This document shows positions 12,665 through 40,644 of a stretch of 64,000 bases of DNA, piece after piece. The notes beneath the pieces are model-generated. The model was not told the origin of the DNA. It made no database searches and was given only the letters and a program-made list of their open reading frames with translations. The stretch's first letter is position 1; every line of letters begins with the position of its first letter. Both the position numbers and the translations under genes were made by a program. Source of the stretch: a virus; IMG/VR virus record IMGVR_UViG_3300008120_000241, positions 12,843 through 76,842 of that record; one strand, 5' to 3'.

Positions 12665-12966
12665 TGGAAGTTGTTGAAATAATATCACATCACGTTGATA
12701 AAACTCAAAACATTATTGTTGTTGAATTTAGAACGAGTGTGGATGATGAGGATGTGGTTAGGGAGGATTTTATTGAATATTCATATTTTGAAGAATTTGG
12801 ATTTGACACAAAAGACGTATTTGACATTTTTGAAGGAACAGATTTTGATGATGACGAATGGGAAGATGATGATTATGAATATGTAGATGAAGATAAATTA
12901 ATTTCTTTTTTGAATGAATATTATATTGTTTTTCCAAAAAAGATACCAAGAGGTGATTTTAGATGA
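12664..12966 (+). CDS. Acidic hypothetical protein
   Basis: 100 aa, TAATG-coupled. Confidence 0.7.
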   Translation: MEVVEIISHHVDKTQNIIVVEFRTSVDDEDVVREDFIEYSYFEEFGFDTKDVFDIFEGTDFDDDEWEDDDYEYVDEDKLISFLNEYYIVFPKKIPRGDFR

Positions 12967-29254: not shown

Positions 29255-31474
29255 TTAACTTTTTTTCTTTTTTGTTGGTTTTTTTACTTTAACTTCCGTT
29301 TTTTTGTCTTTTTCATTATATGATAAAATAAACTTGGAGCCTTTTTCTGGGTTATCGTTTAAGATTTTATCGGTTACAGCGTCGTCTACCCACTTTTGAA
29401 TTGTTCTCTTTAATATACGTGCACCAAACCTTGTGTCGGTACCAACGGATATGATGTGTTTTTTCAAAGTTTCATCAACTTCCAATTCAAATTCAATACC
29501 ATTAATTCGTTTATATACTTTTTCAAGTTCAAGATCAACAATTTGTAACAAATCACTTTCATTTAAGTCCTTGAAATAAATAATCTCATCAAAACGGTTA
29601 ATGAACTCTGGGGCAAACTTTTTAAATAATTCTTTTTCTAGAAGTGATTTTATTTCTTCTTCCTTTTTTTCTGTTTTGGTACTTGTTGAAAATCCAACAC
29701 CAGTTCCAAAATCTTGAAGAACTCTAGTCCCAACATTTGAAGTCATTAAAATAATGCAATTTTTAAAATTGATTTTTCTTCCGTGTCCGTCAGTTAAAAA
29801 TCCTTCATCCAACATTTGTAAAAACACATTAAATATTTCCGGATGTGCCTTTTCAATTTCATCTAACAAAATAACCGAATATGGTTTGTTCTTGATTTTA
29901 TTTAAGAATGGAGAACCGTCTTCATAACCAACATATCCGGGTGCCGTTCCAGTTAATTTTGATGTTGCAATTTTATCTGAAAATTCACTCATATCAAGTC
30001 GGATAAGTGCGTCCTCACTATTAAACATATGTTTTGCCAATTGTTTTGCCAACTCAGTTTTACCAACGCCTGAGTTACCAATTAATAATCCACTAAAAAT
30101 TGGTTTCTTTGGATCATTTAAACCAACCTTGTTTCGCTGGATCGCTCTTGCGATTTTACTTACCGCGTCATCCTGTCCAATTACTTTTGTTGATAAGGTT
30201 TCCTTCAATGTTTTTAATTGTTCGGTCTCATCTGTTGTTATTTTTGAGATTGGAATTTTTGTCATTAATGAAACAACGTCATATACCACATCTTCGGTAA
30301 CTTCTCTTTTAAATAAGTTTCTATTTTTTTCAAACTGAGCTTTTTCTCTTTCCAAATCAGTTAAAACCTTCCTTTCTTTGTCTCTAAGATTTGCGGCTTC
30401 TTCATAACGTTGACTATTAATAACTCTAACCTTTTCTTCTTTAATTTCTTGAGCTTGTCTTTTTAAATCCTCAATAATTTCTGGTAATTTAATTTCAACT
30501 TGCGATCTGGCACCAACCTCATCAATAATATCAAAAGCCTTATCTGGAAATTCTCTGTCCGTAATATATCGGTCGGCCAACTCAACACAAAGTTTTAAAA
30601 TGTCCTCAGTATAACTAACTTTGTGGTGATCTTCATATCTTTCTTTTGAGTTTTGAAGTATTTGTAATGTTTCTTCTTTGGTTGATGGATCAACCATTAC
30701 TTTTTGGAATCTTCTTTCAAGTGCACCATCCTTTTCAATGTTTTTTCTATATTCCTCCAAGGTTGTCGCGCCAATACATTGTAATTCACCTCTTGATAAA
30801 GCCGGTTTAAATATGTTTGAAGCATCCATTGAACCTGACGCATTTCCTGCACCAATCATTGTGTGGATTTCATCAATAAAGATGATGATATCTGGATTAT
30901 TATAAAGTTCCTCCATAATGACCTTCATCCTTTCTTCAAACTGACCTCTGTATTTTGTTCCAGCAACAATTGATGTCATATCCAATGAAACAATTCGTTT
31001 TCCGGATAAATTTTGAGGACAATCACCTTCAAATATTTTCTTTGCCAGACCTTCAATTATGGCAGTTTTACCACAATTGTGAGAAACGACACCATTTGAT
31101 ATGTATTTTCTTTCATTGTCCAATACTTCAAGATCAAATGTATTGTGTACACCAATATCTTCTTTTTCAACGACTTCATACATATTATTATCTTCAAAAT
31201 AAATTAAATCACCAATATTAAGGTTTTTTAAACGAACCCAATACGATTCATTTAAAACCTCAACATTTTCATTATTTATTGATGATTCAACCTCAACCAA
31301 GTGATCCTCGGAACCAGAAAGTTCGGTACCATTTGAAAGTTTTATTTTATAACAATTTTTGTTTTGTTTCTTAAATAGGTTACCAACAAGTTTGAAACCA
31401 GATGGTGTTTTAATTTTATACGTCCCTCCTTCATTTTCAATTAAATTAAAAAATTCTTCAATTTTGATTTTCAT
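29255..31474 (-). CDS. clpC: ClpC-like AAA+ ATPase, C-terminal part, preceded by a 133-aa C-intein
   Basis: Intein blocks SEDH, TFDLEV, ISNGVVSHN|C; then CGKT, IIIFIDEIH, GATT..EY, UVR coil, GNSGVGKTE, LLDEIEKAHP, VGF ClpP-docking loop, PEFINR. Confidence 0.92.
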   Translation of the reverse strand: MKIKIEEFFNLIENEGGTYKIKTPSGFKLVGNLFKKQNKNCYKIKLSNGTELSGSEDHLVEVESSINNENVEVLNESYWVRLKNLNIGDLIYFEDNNMYEVVEKEDIGVHNTFDLEVLDNERKYISNGVVSHNCGKTAIIEGLAKKIFEGDCPQNLSGKRIVSLDMTSIVAGTKYRGQFEERMKVIMEELYNNPDIIIFIDEIHTMIGAGNASGSMDASNIFKPALSRGELQCIGATTLEEYRKNIEKDGALERRFQKVMVDPSTKEETLQILQNSKERYEDHHKVSYTEDILKLCVELADRYITDREFPDKAFDIIDEVGARSQVEIKLPEIIEDLKRQAQEIKEEKVRVINSQRYEEAANLRDKERKVLTDLEREKAQFEKNRNLFKREVTEDVVYDVVSLMTKIPISKITTDETEQLKTLKETLSTKVIGQDDAVSKIARAIQRNKVGLNDPKKPIFSGLLIGNSGVGKTELAKQLAKHMFNSEDALIRLDMSEFSDKIATSKLTGTAPGYVGYEDGSPFLNKIKNKPYSVILLDEIEKAHPEIFNVFLQMLDEGFLTDGHGRKINFKNCIILMTSNVGTRVLQDFGTGVGFSTSTKTEKKEEEIKSLLEKELFKKFAPEFINRFDEIIYFKDLNESDLLQIVDLELEKVYKRINGIEFELEVDETLKKHIISVGTDTRFGARILKRTIQKWVDDAVTDKILNDNPEKGSKFILSYNEKDKKTEVKVKKPTKKKKS
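31076..31474 (-). other. Split intein C-fragment (133 aa, ends His-Asn, +1 Cys)
   Basis: KIKTPSGF..KIKLSNG.ELSGSEDHLV..WVRLKNLNIGD..TFDLEV..YISNGVVSHN. Confidence 0.88.
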
Positions 31475-31503
31475 AATATTTTTATAAATTTTTTGTTATG
31501 TTA

Positions 31504-31797
31504 TTAGATGGTCTCAATATTATGAGTATTCACATCAGAAACTTTTTCTACTTCAATCCACGTATCACCTAAAACACATCCAGGTTCACCAAGTATGATT
31601 GGATTATTCTTTTTTCTTCTGGATAAAATCTGAGCAATCCTATTAATTTCATCTTCTCTACCAACAACCGGATCCAACTTACCTTCTTCGGCCAATTTTA
31701 TTAAGTCTCTTGAAAAGTTATCAAGAACCGGGGTTTTACTTTTGGAATCCGTGTTTTTACTTTTGGATTTGTCCATATCATCAAATGACTCAATCAT
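31504..31797 (-). CDS. clpC: ClpC-like ATPase N-terminal part (73 aa) fused to a 24-aa N-intein
   Basis: [11 protein letters not shown]...[33 protein letters not shown] then [10 protein letters not shown]..; TAGTTTTG promoter at 31839-31846. Confidence 0.9.
31507..31578 (-). other. Split intein N-fragment (24 aa, [24 protein letters not shown])
   Basis: Intein block A (C-V-x-G-D-T-x-I) directly after GEPG of Walker A, then tandem TAA TAA. Confidence 0.85.
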
Positions 31798-31874
31798 ATC
31801 TTATATTTTTTGTTTTTATTTCTTGGATAAGTTTAAAACAAAACTACCAAATAATCAATCATATCTTAAATTTT

Positions 31875-31986
31875 TGTCAGTCTGTCAGTTATATTTTATA
31901 AAGTATGACATTTTGTCAGTTATATTTTTTGAAAAAAGACAATTTATCACAATATTATTTAAAAAATCAAATGGTATTAATTTGGT
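31875..31986. promoter_or_regulatory. Repeated TGTCAG/TGACA operator-like sites in the divergent clpC / UVR-gene spacer
   Basis: TGTCAG at 31875, 31883, 31914; palindrome TGACA-TTT-TGTCA 31906-31918; 15-bp direct repeat TGTCAGTTATATTTT. Confidence 0.5.
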
Positions 31987-37665: not shown

Positions 37666-40644
37666 ATGGCAGAAAATAAATTAACGGTTTGGCAGAGGTT
37701 AGGGAAAGTATTTGGTCCGACATCCACATTGGATCAACAATCACCTGTGTTTAAATTTGATAAGAAACAACTATTAAAAACAACAGATAAAAATGAGTTT
37801 GAAAGGGAGAAACTTGAAGCCCAACAAACCATGTATATTGGTAAACAATGGCAGAAGGTTGAGAGTAATTTATACCAACAAGCGGTGTACTATGAACCAA
37901 CCAGAATGGCTTCATATTATGATTATGAGGCCATGGAGTACTCAATCCATGGGGACACCAAAATTGCCACTCCTGATGGTTTTATGACCATAAAAGAGCT
38001 TTCAGACAAGGGTAGAGATTATGAATTTATAACATACGCTTATGACCATAATTTGAAAAAAGTAGTACCAGCAATCGCCAGAAATGCTCACTATACCAGA
38101 GATGAAATGGCTTATAAAATTACGTTTGATGATGGGTCACATATTATCGCAACTTATGGTCATAGGTTCTTAAAAAGGGATGGTGTTTTTTGTGAGGTTG
38201 AAAACCTTAAACCGGGGGATTCAATGATGCCATTTTATAGAAAATCTTTTTACAATAATCAAAATTACCATTGGGTTTATACTTGTAATTCAAACGAGGG
38301 TCATCATGGTTGGATATCTGAACACAATTTAATTGCGGAGTGGTATTATAAAAGAAAAATTAATGAAGACGAAGAAGTTCATCATAAAGATTTCAATGGT
38401 AAAAATAACAAACCGGAAAATTTACAAATAATGAATATTTCCGAACATAGAGCTTATCATGCGAGATTAAACAACGAAAAATTATGGGCAAACCCCGAAT
38501 ATAGACAAAAAATGTCTGAAGTTGCTAGAAGAACCGGTAAGTATAGTTGGGAAGGGAAAAGAGCTAAAGAGAATAATCCGGCATATATAAAATTATCATT
38601 TGATTTGATTGTTGAAAAAGCAAGAGAACATAGAACGTTAATGGAAACTGCCACCTCACTTGGTGTTTCATTTAGAAAAATACAGAATGAACTTAGATTC
38701 AATGGGTTTAAAAATTGGTTTGATTTTTTGGATGTTTATGGAATTGATAAAAGTAATAGTGATACTTACGGTGAAAAAAACAATAACTTCAAAAAAATCG
38801 CTTGGGATTTATTAATTGAAATTGCTAGACAAGAAAATAGTATTACAAATACGGCCAAAAGATTGAATGTAAGTAGAAATAAAATTTTAAAAACAATAAA
38901 AGAAGGGGGATTTAATAATTGGATTACATTTTTGGAATCATATGGTATTGAAAAATCAAAACACCACCACCCAAAAAATGAAGAACCAGTTATTAATCAC
39001 AAAATAGTATCAATTGAACCATATGGTGTTGTACCAGTTTATGACTTAACTGTGCCGGGTTATAAGAACTTCGCTACAGATACCATTTTCTCACACAATA
39101 CACCTGAGATCTCTGCCGCTCTTGATATTTACTCTGAAGAATCCACCACTCCTGACCAAGACGGACACATTTTAAAAGTCTACTCTGAATCAAAAAGAAT
39201 TAAACAAGTATTGGTTGATTTGTTTGTAAATAGACTTGATATAAACACCAATTTACCGATGTGGACAAGAAACACTTGTAAATTTGGCGACAATTTCACA
39301 TATTTAAAGTTAGACCCAGAAAAAGGGGTTGTTGGGTGTCAACAATTACCAAATATCCAAATTGAAAGATTGGAAAAGGGAATGAGATTTCAACCGGACA
39401 AATATTCACAAGAAATGGAAAACGATGCTTTGAAATTTGTTGGGAAAGAAAAAAATATGGAGTTCAATACGTGGGAAATTGCCCACTTTAGAATACTTGG
39501 AGATGACCGAAAATTACCTTATGGGACATCTATGTTGGAGAAGGCTAGACGTATATGGAAACAGCTCCTTTTATCGGAAGATGCGATGATGATTTACCGG
39601 GTATCAAGAGCACCAGAAAGAAGGGTATTTAAAGTATTTGTCGGAAATATGGACGACAAAGATGTTGATTCATATGTACAGCGTGTAGCAAACAAATTTA
39701 AAAGGGATCAGATTGCTGACCCCAAAACTGGAAATGTGGATATGAGATACAATCAATTGGCCGTAGATCAAGATTACTTTATCCCGGTTAGAGACCCTTC
39801 CCAAACCAATCCAATTGAAACATTGCCGGGTGGTACAAACTTAGCCGAAATTGCTGATATTGAATATATCCAAAAGAAACTGGTAACTGCCCTTAGAATA
39901 CCAAAGGCGTATTTAGGTTTTGAAGAAGCAGTAGGTAATGGACAAAACTTATCTTTACTTGATATTAGATTTGCAAGAACAATCAACAAAATTCAAAAAT
40001 CAATGTTGGCCGAACTTAATAAGATTGCCATTATTCATTTATTTTTATTAGGGTTTGAAGATGAACTAACAAACTTTACGTTGGGGTTACACAATCCATC
40101 AAAACAATCCGAACTTCTTTCATTGGAATTGTGGAAAGAAAAAATTGAATTATACAAAAATGCGGTAGCTGAAATCGCAAATTCGGTTGCACCAACCTCA
40201 GCTTCTTGGGCTAAAAAGAATATTCTAGGTTTCTCAGATGAGGAGATCAGATTGGATTTACAACAACAACGAATTGAAAGGGCTGTTGCAGCTGAACTTG
40301 CTAAAACACCTGAAGTCATTACAAAAACTGGATTGTTTGATAATATTGATCAATTATATGGTAAAAAACCAGGTGAACCGGCAGGTGAAGCACCAGAAGG
40401 TGGAGAAGAACCTGGAGGAATGCCACCAATGGGTGGAGGATCTGAACTAGGAGGACCACCCCCACCACCGGGACCAGAACCAGGAGGTGAAGTAGGAGTA
40501 ACACCAGAATCAACCAAGAAAAATGATTTAAATTTAATTCTGGAAGATAACTTATATTATGGTAAAACCTCTCTTGATTTATCAAAGGGTAGATTAACCA
40601 TTAATGAAATTGATGACAAATTAAAAGATTTATTGGATAAGTGA
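37666..40644 (+). CDS. Portal protein (T4 gp20-like) with a contiguous intein
   Basis: YEAME..PEISAALDIY, YGTSMLE.ARRIWKQL.L.EDAM.IYR..RAPERRVF..VGNM, DYFIPVR, IETLPGG.NL.EI.DI.Y. Confidence 0.92.
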   Translation: MAENKLTVWQRLGKVFGPTSTLDQQSPVFKFDKKQLLKTTDKNEFEREKLEAQQTMYIGKQWQKVESNLYQQAVYYEPTRMASYYDYEAMEYSIHGDTKIATPDGFMTIKELSDKGRDYEFITYAYDHNLKKVVPAIARNAHYTRDEMAYKITFDDGSHIIATYGHRFLKRDGVFCEVENLKPGDSMMPFYRKSFYNNQNYHWVYTCNSNEGHHGWISEHNLIAEWYYKRKINEDEEVHHKDFNGKNNKPENLQIMNISEHRAYHARLNNEKLWANPEYRQKMSEVARRTGKYSWEGKRAKENNPAYIKLSFDLIVEKAREHRTLMETATSLGVSFRKIQNELRFNGFKNWFDFLDVYGIDKSNSDTYGEKNNNFKKIAWDLLIEIARQENSITNTAKRLNVSRNKILKTIKEGGFNNWITFLESYGIEKSKHHHPKNEEPVINHKIVSIEPYGVVPVYDLTVPGYKNFATDTIFSHNTPEISAALDIYSEESTTPDQDGHILKVYSESKRIKQVLVDLFVNRLDINTNLPMWTRNTCKFGDNFTYLKLDPEKGVVGCQQLPNIQIERLEKGMRFQPDKYSQEMENDALKFVGKEKNMEFNTWEIAHFRILGDDRKLPYGTSMLEKARRIWKQLLLSEDAMMIYRVSRAPERRVFKVFVGNMDDKDVDSYVQRVANKFKRDQIADPKTGNVDMRYNQLAVDQDYFIPVRDPSQTNPIETLPGGTNLAEIADIEYIQKKLVTALRIPKAYLGFEEAVGNGQNLSLLDIRFARTINKIQKSMLAELNKIAIIHLFLLGFEDELTNFTLGLHNPSKQSELLSLELWKEKIELYKNAVAEIANSVAPTSASWAKKNILGFSDEEIRLDLQQQRIERAVAAELAKTPEVITKTGLFDNIDQLYGKKPGEPAGEAPEGGEEPGGMPPMGGGSELGGPPPPPGPEPGGEVGVTPESTKKNDLNLILEDNLYYGKTSLDLSKGRLTINEIDDKLKDLLDK
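37942..39099 (+). mobile_element. 386-aa intein with HNH homing endonuclease in portal (Ser1 ... His-Asn, +1 Thr)
   Basis: SIHGDTKIATPDG, ATYGHRF, EVHHKDFNGKNNKPENL (HNH), VYDLTVPGYKNFATDTIFSHN|T. Confidence 0.9.

Follow-up and report, generated by a model that had tools for sequence, protein, structure and literature searches.

Structure of the locus

The DNA analyzed here, referred to throughout as the window, is a stretch of 64,000 nucleotides (nt) from the IMG/VR virus record IMGVR_UViG_3300008120_000241 (positions 12,843 to 76,842 of that record). On its minus strand lies a gene for a ClpC-like protein that reads as two adjacent open reading frames (ORFs) of 97 and 739 amino acids (aa), ORF-N and ORF-C. 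The Walker A motif of the first ATPase domain (D1) is broken between GEPG and CGKT by a class-1 mini-intein of 157 aa, which is itself in two parts: an N-terminal fragment of 24 aa (IntN) and a C-terminal fragment of 133 aa (IntC). The features, in window coordinates, are listed below.

31797..31504, minus strand: ORF-N, 97 aa, ending in GEPG and a 24-aa tail with a leading Cys
31579..31797, minus strand: N-extein, 73 aa; a linker plus the first part of ClpC D1 as far as the Walker A residues GEPG, without a Clp_N domain
31507..31578, minus strand: IntN, 24 aa; Cys1 and block A (CVLGDT..)
31506-31504, minus strand: first stop codon TAA, the end of ORF-N
31503-31501, minus strand: second TAA, directly after the first
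31475..31506, minus strand: gap of 32 nt made up of TAA, TAA and an A/T-rich spacer of 26 nt; out of frame
31474..29255, minus strand: ORF-C, 739 aa, with its own ATG at 31474
31076..31474, minus strand: IntC, 133 aa; predicted helix alpha-1, block B (S-E-D-H), block F (TFDLEV, with its Asp) and block G (SHN)
29258..31075, minus strand: C-extein, 606 aa; Cys+1-GKT, the rest of D1, the M-domain, the second ATPase domain (D2, Walker A intact) and the D2-small domain
29255..29257, minus strand: stop codon of ORF-C

The last sense codon of ORF-N is separated from the ATG of ORF-C by 32 nt, which places the two ORFs in different frames; from the first stop to the ATG the distance is 29 nt. No ORF is present in the gap between the intein halves of the window. 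Joined, the exteins would amount to 73 + 606 = 679 aa. A preliminary description of this DNA, made from the sequence alone, had proposed a ClpC split inside the D1 Walker A motif by fragments of 24 and 133 aa, with an out-of-frame spacer of 29 nt followed by a separate ATG, and every one of these details can be read in the window. Pieces of this size with their own stop and start fit the atypical class of split inteins, in which IntN measures about 15-37 aa and IntC more than 100 aa (range from PMC13014065).

The host protein

Alignment predicts that the interrupted protein is a ClpC-like double AAA+ ATPase without the N-domain. Residues 11-74 of the N-piece align to Bacillus subtilis ClpC 149-212 (E-value 5e-18), residues 11-73 of the N-extein corresponding to ClpC 149-211, and residues 2-588 of the C-extein form one gap-free aligned stretch with ClpC 213-798 (E-value 7e-177). 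Against this single stretch, the alignment of the C-extein to ClpB consists of two stretches only. Because both exteins are colinear with B. subtilis ClpC, they abut exactly, with no residue missing or duplicated, and Cys+1 occupies the place of the Val in the GEPGVGKT of ClpC. Pfam matches in ORF-C comprise AAA, AAA_lid_9, AAA_2 and ClpB_D2-small. An intein-less homologue of 701 aa, with GEPGVGKS in its Walker A motif, is encoded by the huge phage LR745206.1.

No Clp_N adaptor-binding domain was found in the window, where the N-piece begins at about ClpC residue 149 and gives no Pfam match. In other lineages (P0339-P0344 and P0346) the N-pieces measure 214-266 aa, carry Clp_N and end in the same GEPG-CVLG.. 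IntN; the D1 intein is thus also present in full-length ClpC genes with the adaptor-binding domain. D2 contains a G-V-G-F tripeptide loop, read directly, which is a candidate for the ClpC motif for ClpP docking. A ClpP gene (PF00574) was found neither in the 76.8-kb record nor in the near-complete relatives G001 and G002, so the phage unfoldase must act alone or with a host peptidase; host ClpP is a possible partner.

Conservation and selection in relatives

The split is widespread. With the N-piece as query, 946 clusters of proteins of 93-113 aa were retrieved; the IntC region as query retrieved more than 130 clusters of C-pieces of about 740 aa, the 120 listed being 59-100% identical in IntC and all beginning with it. 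These are the homologues with the same insertion and split point for which the preliminary description had suggested looking. Among the listed N-pieces, IntN is 24 aa long in 111 of 119; Cys1 is present in all 119, and Val2, Ile8 and Ser14 are invariant with it. Among the listed C-pieces, IntC measures 133 aa in 118 of 120 and ends in SHN followed by CGKT in every one, and a Cys at IntC residue 41 is kept in at least 97%. In a family alignment of 60 sequences, built with 28-aa references, the columns that hardly vary are His of block B, Asp of block F, the terminal Asn, a Gly and a Tyr. Repeated in hundreds of diverged relatives, this anatomy lies far beyond chance.

Comparison of the window with eight viral loci gave ratios of nonsynonymous to synonymous substitution (dN/dS) of 0.02-0.18 for IntN and of 0.02-0.24 over IntN and IntC, with dS saturated and dN low. 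In distant pairs the intein is as conserved as the extein or more so; in locus L009, IntC is 74% identical to that of the window and the C-extein 64%.

Fold of the intein and position of the split

Sequence searches of the PDB with IntC matched gp41-1 (E-value 1.7e-5), VidaL (3.9e-4) and the consensus atypical CatC (2e-3). The alignment to solved inteins starts at about intein position 25, IntC residue 2 corresponding to VidaL residue 25. For modelling, relative L003 was chosen (82% identical); its gap of 27 nt is in frame and holds TGA and TAA, both of which were set to Gly in a read-through, while the gap of the window is itself out of frame. The AF2 model of this read-through, made with the 60-row family alignment, reached a mean predicted local distance difference test (pLDDT) score of 89.5 and a predicted template modelling score (pTM) of 0.84. 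IntN residues 7-14 form a strand of the Hedgehog/intein (HINT) fold, the artificial linker has low confidence, and IntC opens with a short strand followed by helix alpha-1. In a Foldseek search with the L003 model the top 40 or more matches were inteins or bacterial intein-like (BIL) domains, the best being VidaL (6vgv; E-value 2e-11, template modelling score TMt 0.90, root-mean-square deviation 2.6 Å). The model supports the view that IntN and IntC together complete one HINT domain.

Split sites have been named by their position relative to helix alpha-1: S1 for the region before it, as in VidaL and PolB16, and S2 for the region after it, as in AceL-TerL (PMC13014065). The cut in the ClpC intein precedes alpha-1, and the split is therefore of the VidaL/PolB16 type (S1) and not of the AceL-TerL type (S2). 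Since IntN has 24 aa here and 16 aa in VidaL, the ClpC intein is cut about eight residues nearer the helix.

The last residues of IntN (about 16-24; window 31507-31533, minus strand) follow a pattern, ..S-D-x-x-T/S-H-N-I/F-E.., that is near-invariant over 111 N-pieces. In the read-through model this tail has low pLDDT and is without secondary structure; capture of the partner, timing and constraint by the target of a homing endonuclease (HEN) are candidate roles.

Trans-splicing and its alternatives

The ClpC gene of the window very probably contains a functional natural split class-1 mini-intein of 24 + 133 aa, inserted between GEPG and CGKT, which produces a 679-aa ClpC by trans-splicing. 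In the proposed mechanism, the two adjacent genes would be co-transcribed and separately translated, after which the IntN tail of the 97-aa protein would dock onto the pre-formed IntC of the 739-aa protein and supply the N-terminal beta-strand that it lacks. Cys1, the block-B His, the block-F Asp, the terminal His-Asn and Cys+1 would then perform standard class-1 trans-splicing, yielding the 679-aa ClpC with a whole P-loop, GEPGCGKT. Because 157 residues interrupt GxxxxGK[ST], the D1 nucleotide site cannot form before excision, and unspliced, neither piece would hold a complete one. That trans-splicing would restore GEPGCGKT had been put forward in the preliminary description; conservation, selection, homology to solved inteins and the confident fold of a close relative all support it.

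Several points weigh on the other side. Association of the halves, the splicing chemistry, the product and the order of events are what we infer from the observed anatomy, conservation, purifying selection, homology and fold of a relative. The model is that of an 82%-identical relative read through two stops and not of the two chains of the window in trans, and it places the conserved IntN tail (residues about 17-24) with low pLDDT. The Pfam model PF14890 (Intein_splicing) scores the ORF-C of the window at 14.1 bits, under its cut-off of 35.8; this model rests on longer N-parts, and 7 of the 60 family members match it, the best at 3.9e-20. No RNA run is among the public runs listed for the locus. 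No ClpP gene was found in two near-complete relatives, which bears on the role of the spliced ClpC.

The two ORFs might in reality be one, divided by an assembly or sequencing artefact, or they might be the remains of a recently broken contiguous intein in a decaying, dead ClpC gene. A contiguous in-frame relative, which the preliminary description had named as a sign of misassembly, does exist once, as the 829-aa form P0345 (locus L024), and the gap of L003 is in frame and interrupted by two stops only. However, the same stop and start, with the lengths of 24 and 133 aa, are kept by hundreds of independently assembled, diverged relatives; dN/dS is far under 1 for both pieces; and in many relatives 1.2 kb lie between the halves. 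Logan contigs from two runs, possibly those of the source sample, cover 31100-31900 with zero differences and reproduce the junction exactly. Assembly error was rejected on this recurrence and on the Logan contigs. The locus is neither an assembly error nor a decaying gene, and any version of such an explanation has next to no probability. Translational bypassing or frameshifting over the 32-nt gap, as in T4 gene 60, would produce one continuous precursor able to splice in cis. ATC, the final codon of IntN, stands directly before the stop and recurs as codon 3 of ORF-C, as such a mechanism would want, but these matching codons are not conserved: IntN ends in ATG, ATT or AAC in relatives, whose gaps range from 14 to 1235 nt. 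The spacer of the window forms no stable hairpin for take-off (fold -0.9 kcal/mol, z -0.15), ORF-C starts at a conserved ATG of its own behind an A-rich leader, and a gene of 1.2 kb is too long to bypass. Bypassing of the gene 60 type, rejected on the differing codons, the 1.2-kb gaps and the missing hairpin, is exceedingly improbable.

Two further possibilities accept two separate chains. The intein halves could hold the ClpC pieces together non-covalently, or mainly yield cleavage products, in which case the working ATPase would consist of two chains. Poor splicing is common among purified split-intein precursors, according to one report (PMC11923092). In principle, only excision would allow Walker A to be rebuilt, and splicing is here what we infer. 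Set against this, a P-loop with 157 aa inside GxxxxGK[ST] cannot form unless the intein is excised, and the invariant residues include those for chemistry and not just for binding (Cys1, the terminal Asn and Cys+1), making a standing two-chain enzyme highly unlikely. Trans-splicing might also serve as a switch, by the redox state of Cys1 and Cys+1 or by temperature, that times ClpC activity in infection. This idea, put forward in the preliminary description, is pure speculation and very unlikely: invariant Cys1 and Cys+1, the conserved Cys 41 of IntC and an IntN tail that is conserved yet outside the predicted core would suit it, but a diverged ClpC lineage (P0243) carries Thr+1, intein-less homologues exist, and the pattern of occurrence agrees with a selfish element going through its homing cycle.

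The putative endonuclease and the proposed history of the split

Many relatives of the split gene keep a third ORF between the intein halves. At L007, L009-12, L015-19 and L018 about 1.2 kb separate the halves and contain an ORF of 390-402 aa on the same strand. A stable hairpin precedes this ORF, which overlaps the start codon of IntC. This layout is that of the fractured genes described by Dassa et al. (2009; PMC2677866), in which intein halves surround a free-standing HEN gene with a 5' hairpin and an overlap with the downstream start. Just after the IntN stop, ahead of the putative HEN ORF, stand a conserved TGATATTTAT box and a hairpin rich in G+C, at -11 to -17 kcal/mol (L007 284-335, L018 283-335, L015 288-335); both are missing from the window.

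The intervening ORF gave no sequence match in Pfam, PHROGs or PDB, and the ESM atlas offered a weak DUF559 lead, below 0.9. The fold of its C-terminal domain (AF2, pLDDT 80-93) resembles the catalytic domain of I-Bth0305I (Z 9.5), Vsr (Z 8.5) and the DUF559-type structure 3hrl (Z 8.4). On this fold, which gave the sole lead, the ORF is a candidate for a Vsr-like homing endonuclease.

The ORF is broken in two in L008 and reduced to a 363-nt remnant in L013. It is gone from the window, L003-6 and L014, where the gaps measure 32, 27 and 14 nt. The preliminary description had noted that no endonuclease lies between the halves, which holds for the window; since many relatives keep a putative HEN there, its absence is a secondary loss. 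In the scheme of Dassa et al. (2009), the window matches stage III, with the endonuclease lost and the intein still split. A free-standing HEN gene of putative Vsr-like type probably once split the intein in the loop before helix alpha-1; in this likely order of events it was kept in many relatives, decayed in others and was deleted in the window.

The halves have also been re-joined. On a single 6.5-kb contig, L024 256..2745 (minus strand) encodes an in-frame re-fused ClpC precursor of 829 aa (P0345), located with a degenerate DNA pattern. In it, K-I-C-Q from the former spacer takes the place of IntN residues 16-24, the stop and the IntC Met. The re-fusion suggests that an IntN core of 15 residues is enough for the fold.

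Related inteins in P-loop ATPases

An exhaustive HMMER search with IntC yielded 97 representative hits. For 34 of the 39 hits at E <= 1e-10 the match starts in the first 29 residues of the protein, and these are also short-N split forms, because the match starts at the protein N-terminus. Where it can be located, the junction in the family is mostly ..SHN followed by (C/T)GK(S/T), and the exteins include AAA, PhoH, RecA, helicases and clamp-loader ATPases. The contiguous relatives P0256, P0266, P0272 and P0279 have an IntN-like N-terminus and a linker of 0-25 aa precisely at the split point; the N-terminus of P0266 is strikingly close to the IntN of the window.

A second short-N split intein occurs in some ClpC relatives (P0011, P0021, P0030 and others), where it cuts the Walker A motif of D2 between GVGK and T, with an IntN of about 29-31 aa, Cys1 and Thr+1. 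One such locus, L026 2779-7306 (minus strand), encodes an N-piece of 602 aa, in which Clp_N domains are present and the D1 loop is intact, followed by a HEN-like ORF of 406 aa and a C-piece of 483 aa whose IntC measures about 230 aa. Relatives of 503 aa are the middle parts of a three-piece ClpC; in the window the D2 loop is intact. At two related ATPase loci (P0276 and P0281) a zinc-finger/HEN-like N-terminal region is fused in frame to IntC; here the endonuclease ORF ran into the downstream piece. A DnaB/gp41-like helicase at L020 856-2625 (plus strand) has a contiguous relative of the intein (27% identity) in its P-loop and, near its C-terminus, a gp41-type intein with the canonical split; an HNH-like ORF comes next.

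A wider proposal places the ClpC intein in a VidaL-like short-N clan, large and mostly unstudied, that specifically colonizes the position between G and xGK(S/T) in the P-loops of AAA+ proteins, PhoH, RecA/UvsX, helicases and clamp loaders. ClpC could take two of these inteins, becoming a three-piece gene, and the IntN tail, 8-10 residues that lie outside the predicted core and are deleted in the re-fused variant, might be a capture or timing element that makes splicing conditional. We consider this proposal unlikely, taken as a whole. If the tail did act in this way, phage ClpC activity would be gated post-translationally.

The phage and its other selfish elements

The source is a large freshwater jumbo phage. 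The window belongs to a virus record of 76.8 kb with an estimated completeness of 26% and about 30% GC, which also encodes a portal protein, a major head protein and homing endonucleases. Relatives lie on contigs of 257 kb (G002; 100% complete, with terminal repeats) and 281 kb (G001; 96% complete), sizes from which the jumbo phage assignment follows. Public runs with the locus mostly bear lake or freshwater metagenome labels, with some labelled 'fungus' or sediment.

The genome is rich in selfish elements. The portal ORF at window 37666-40644 (plus strand) matches portal proteins over residues 478-872 and an HNH endonuclease over residues 114-282, which would fit a separate intein with an HNH domain inside the portal gene. 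At window 49558-51279 (plus strand), just downstream of the major head protein gene (46913-48733), lies a gene for a free-standing homing endonuclease of 573 aa (phrog_3339, E-value 9e-86).

Significance

Few natural split inteins have an IntN within reach of peptide synthesis, and those few are sought for protein semisynthesis and in-cell protein editing. The 24/133-aa pair, strongly selected and present in hundreds of variants, is in effect a natural library and a reasonable tool candidate. A natural truncation (the 15-aa core of the re-fused form) and an orthogonal partner, the intein in the D2 loop of relatives, are also on offer. The gene adds a chaperone/unfoldase to intein hosts otherwise dominated by DNA-metabolism enzymes, and one gene family displays the full fractured-gene cycle, with the putative HEN present, decaying, lost, and the halves re-fused.

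Comparison with known split inteins

The natural short-N split inteins named in the literature covered here are AceL-TerL, GOS-TerL, VidaL and PolB16, with IntN fragments of 15-37 aa (PMC13014065; PMC10189870). The literature search found no intein in ClpA, ClpB or ClpC and only ClpP inteins, its coverage being incomplete and InBase outside its scope. The suggestion that a short-N split intein in a Clp chaperone may be undescribed stands to that extent, although short-N split inteins as a kind are known. ClpC seems to be an unpublished host of a known kind of element, in an arrangement that is common in metagenomes, and the principle is not new.

The preliminary description had likened the element to AceL-TerL and had taken short-N split inteins to sit in terminase or polymerase genes. 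Both points need revision: the structural relative is VidaL, split before helix alpha-1, and the closest relatives, a large family, occupy the P-loops of many ATPases. AceL-TerL, GOS-TerL and the consensus Cat (PDB 6dsl) do share with the ClpC intein a similarly short natural IntN (25-37 aa), dependence on Cys and an origin in phage metagenomes. They differ in their terminase host and in a split after helix alpha-1 (S2, PMC13014065), whereas in the ClpC intein this helix starts IntC.

The relatives that keep the endonuclease resemble the fractured genes (Dassa, London, Stoddard, Schueler-Furman and Pietrokovski, 2009; PMC2677866) in having halves that flank a HEN, a 5' hairpin, an overlap with the start and, as predicted from its fold, a Vsr-like nuclease domain. 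The fractured genes encode DNA-metabolism enzymes and not a chaperone/unfoldase; moreover, the window has no HEN, and the ClpC intein is cut near its N-terminus. Another phage P-loop intein from metagenomes, that of the helicase gp41-1 (PDB 6qaz), is the best PDB sequence match of IntC, but its split is the canonical one, into a long IntN and a short IntC. The best-known inteins of the fractured-gene work, gp41-1 and NrdJ-1, are reportedly both split in this canonical way.

The structural relative named above, VidaL, interrupts UvsX and has an IntN of 16 aa (PDB 6vgv and 6vgw; PMC13014065). The two elements are Cys-dependent class-1 mini-inteins of environmental phages, reside in P-loop ATPases, and combine a short IntN with a long IntC, the split falling in the loop that leads from the N-terminal strands to helix alpha-1. 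They differ in host, UvsX as against ClpC, and share about 22% sequence identity, the ClpC intein being known here from sequence and model.

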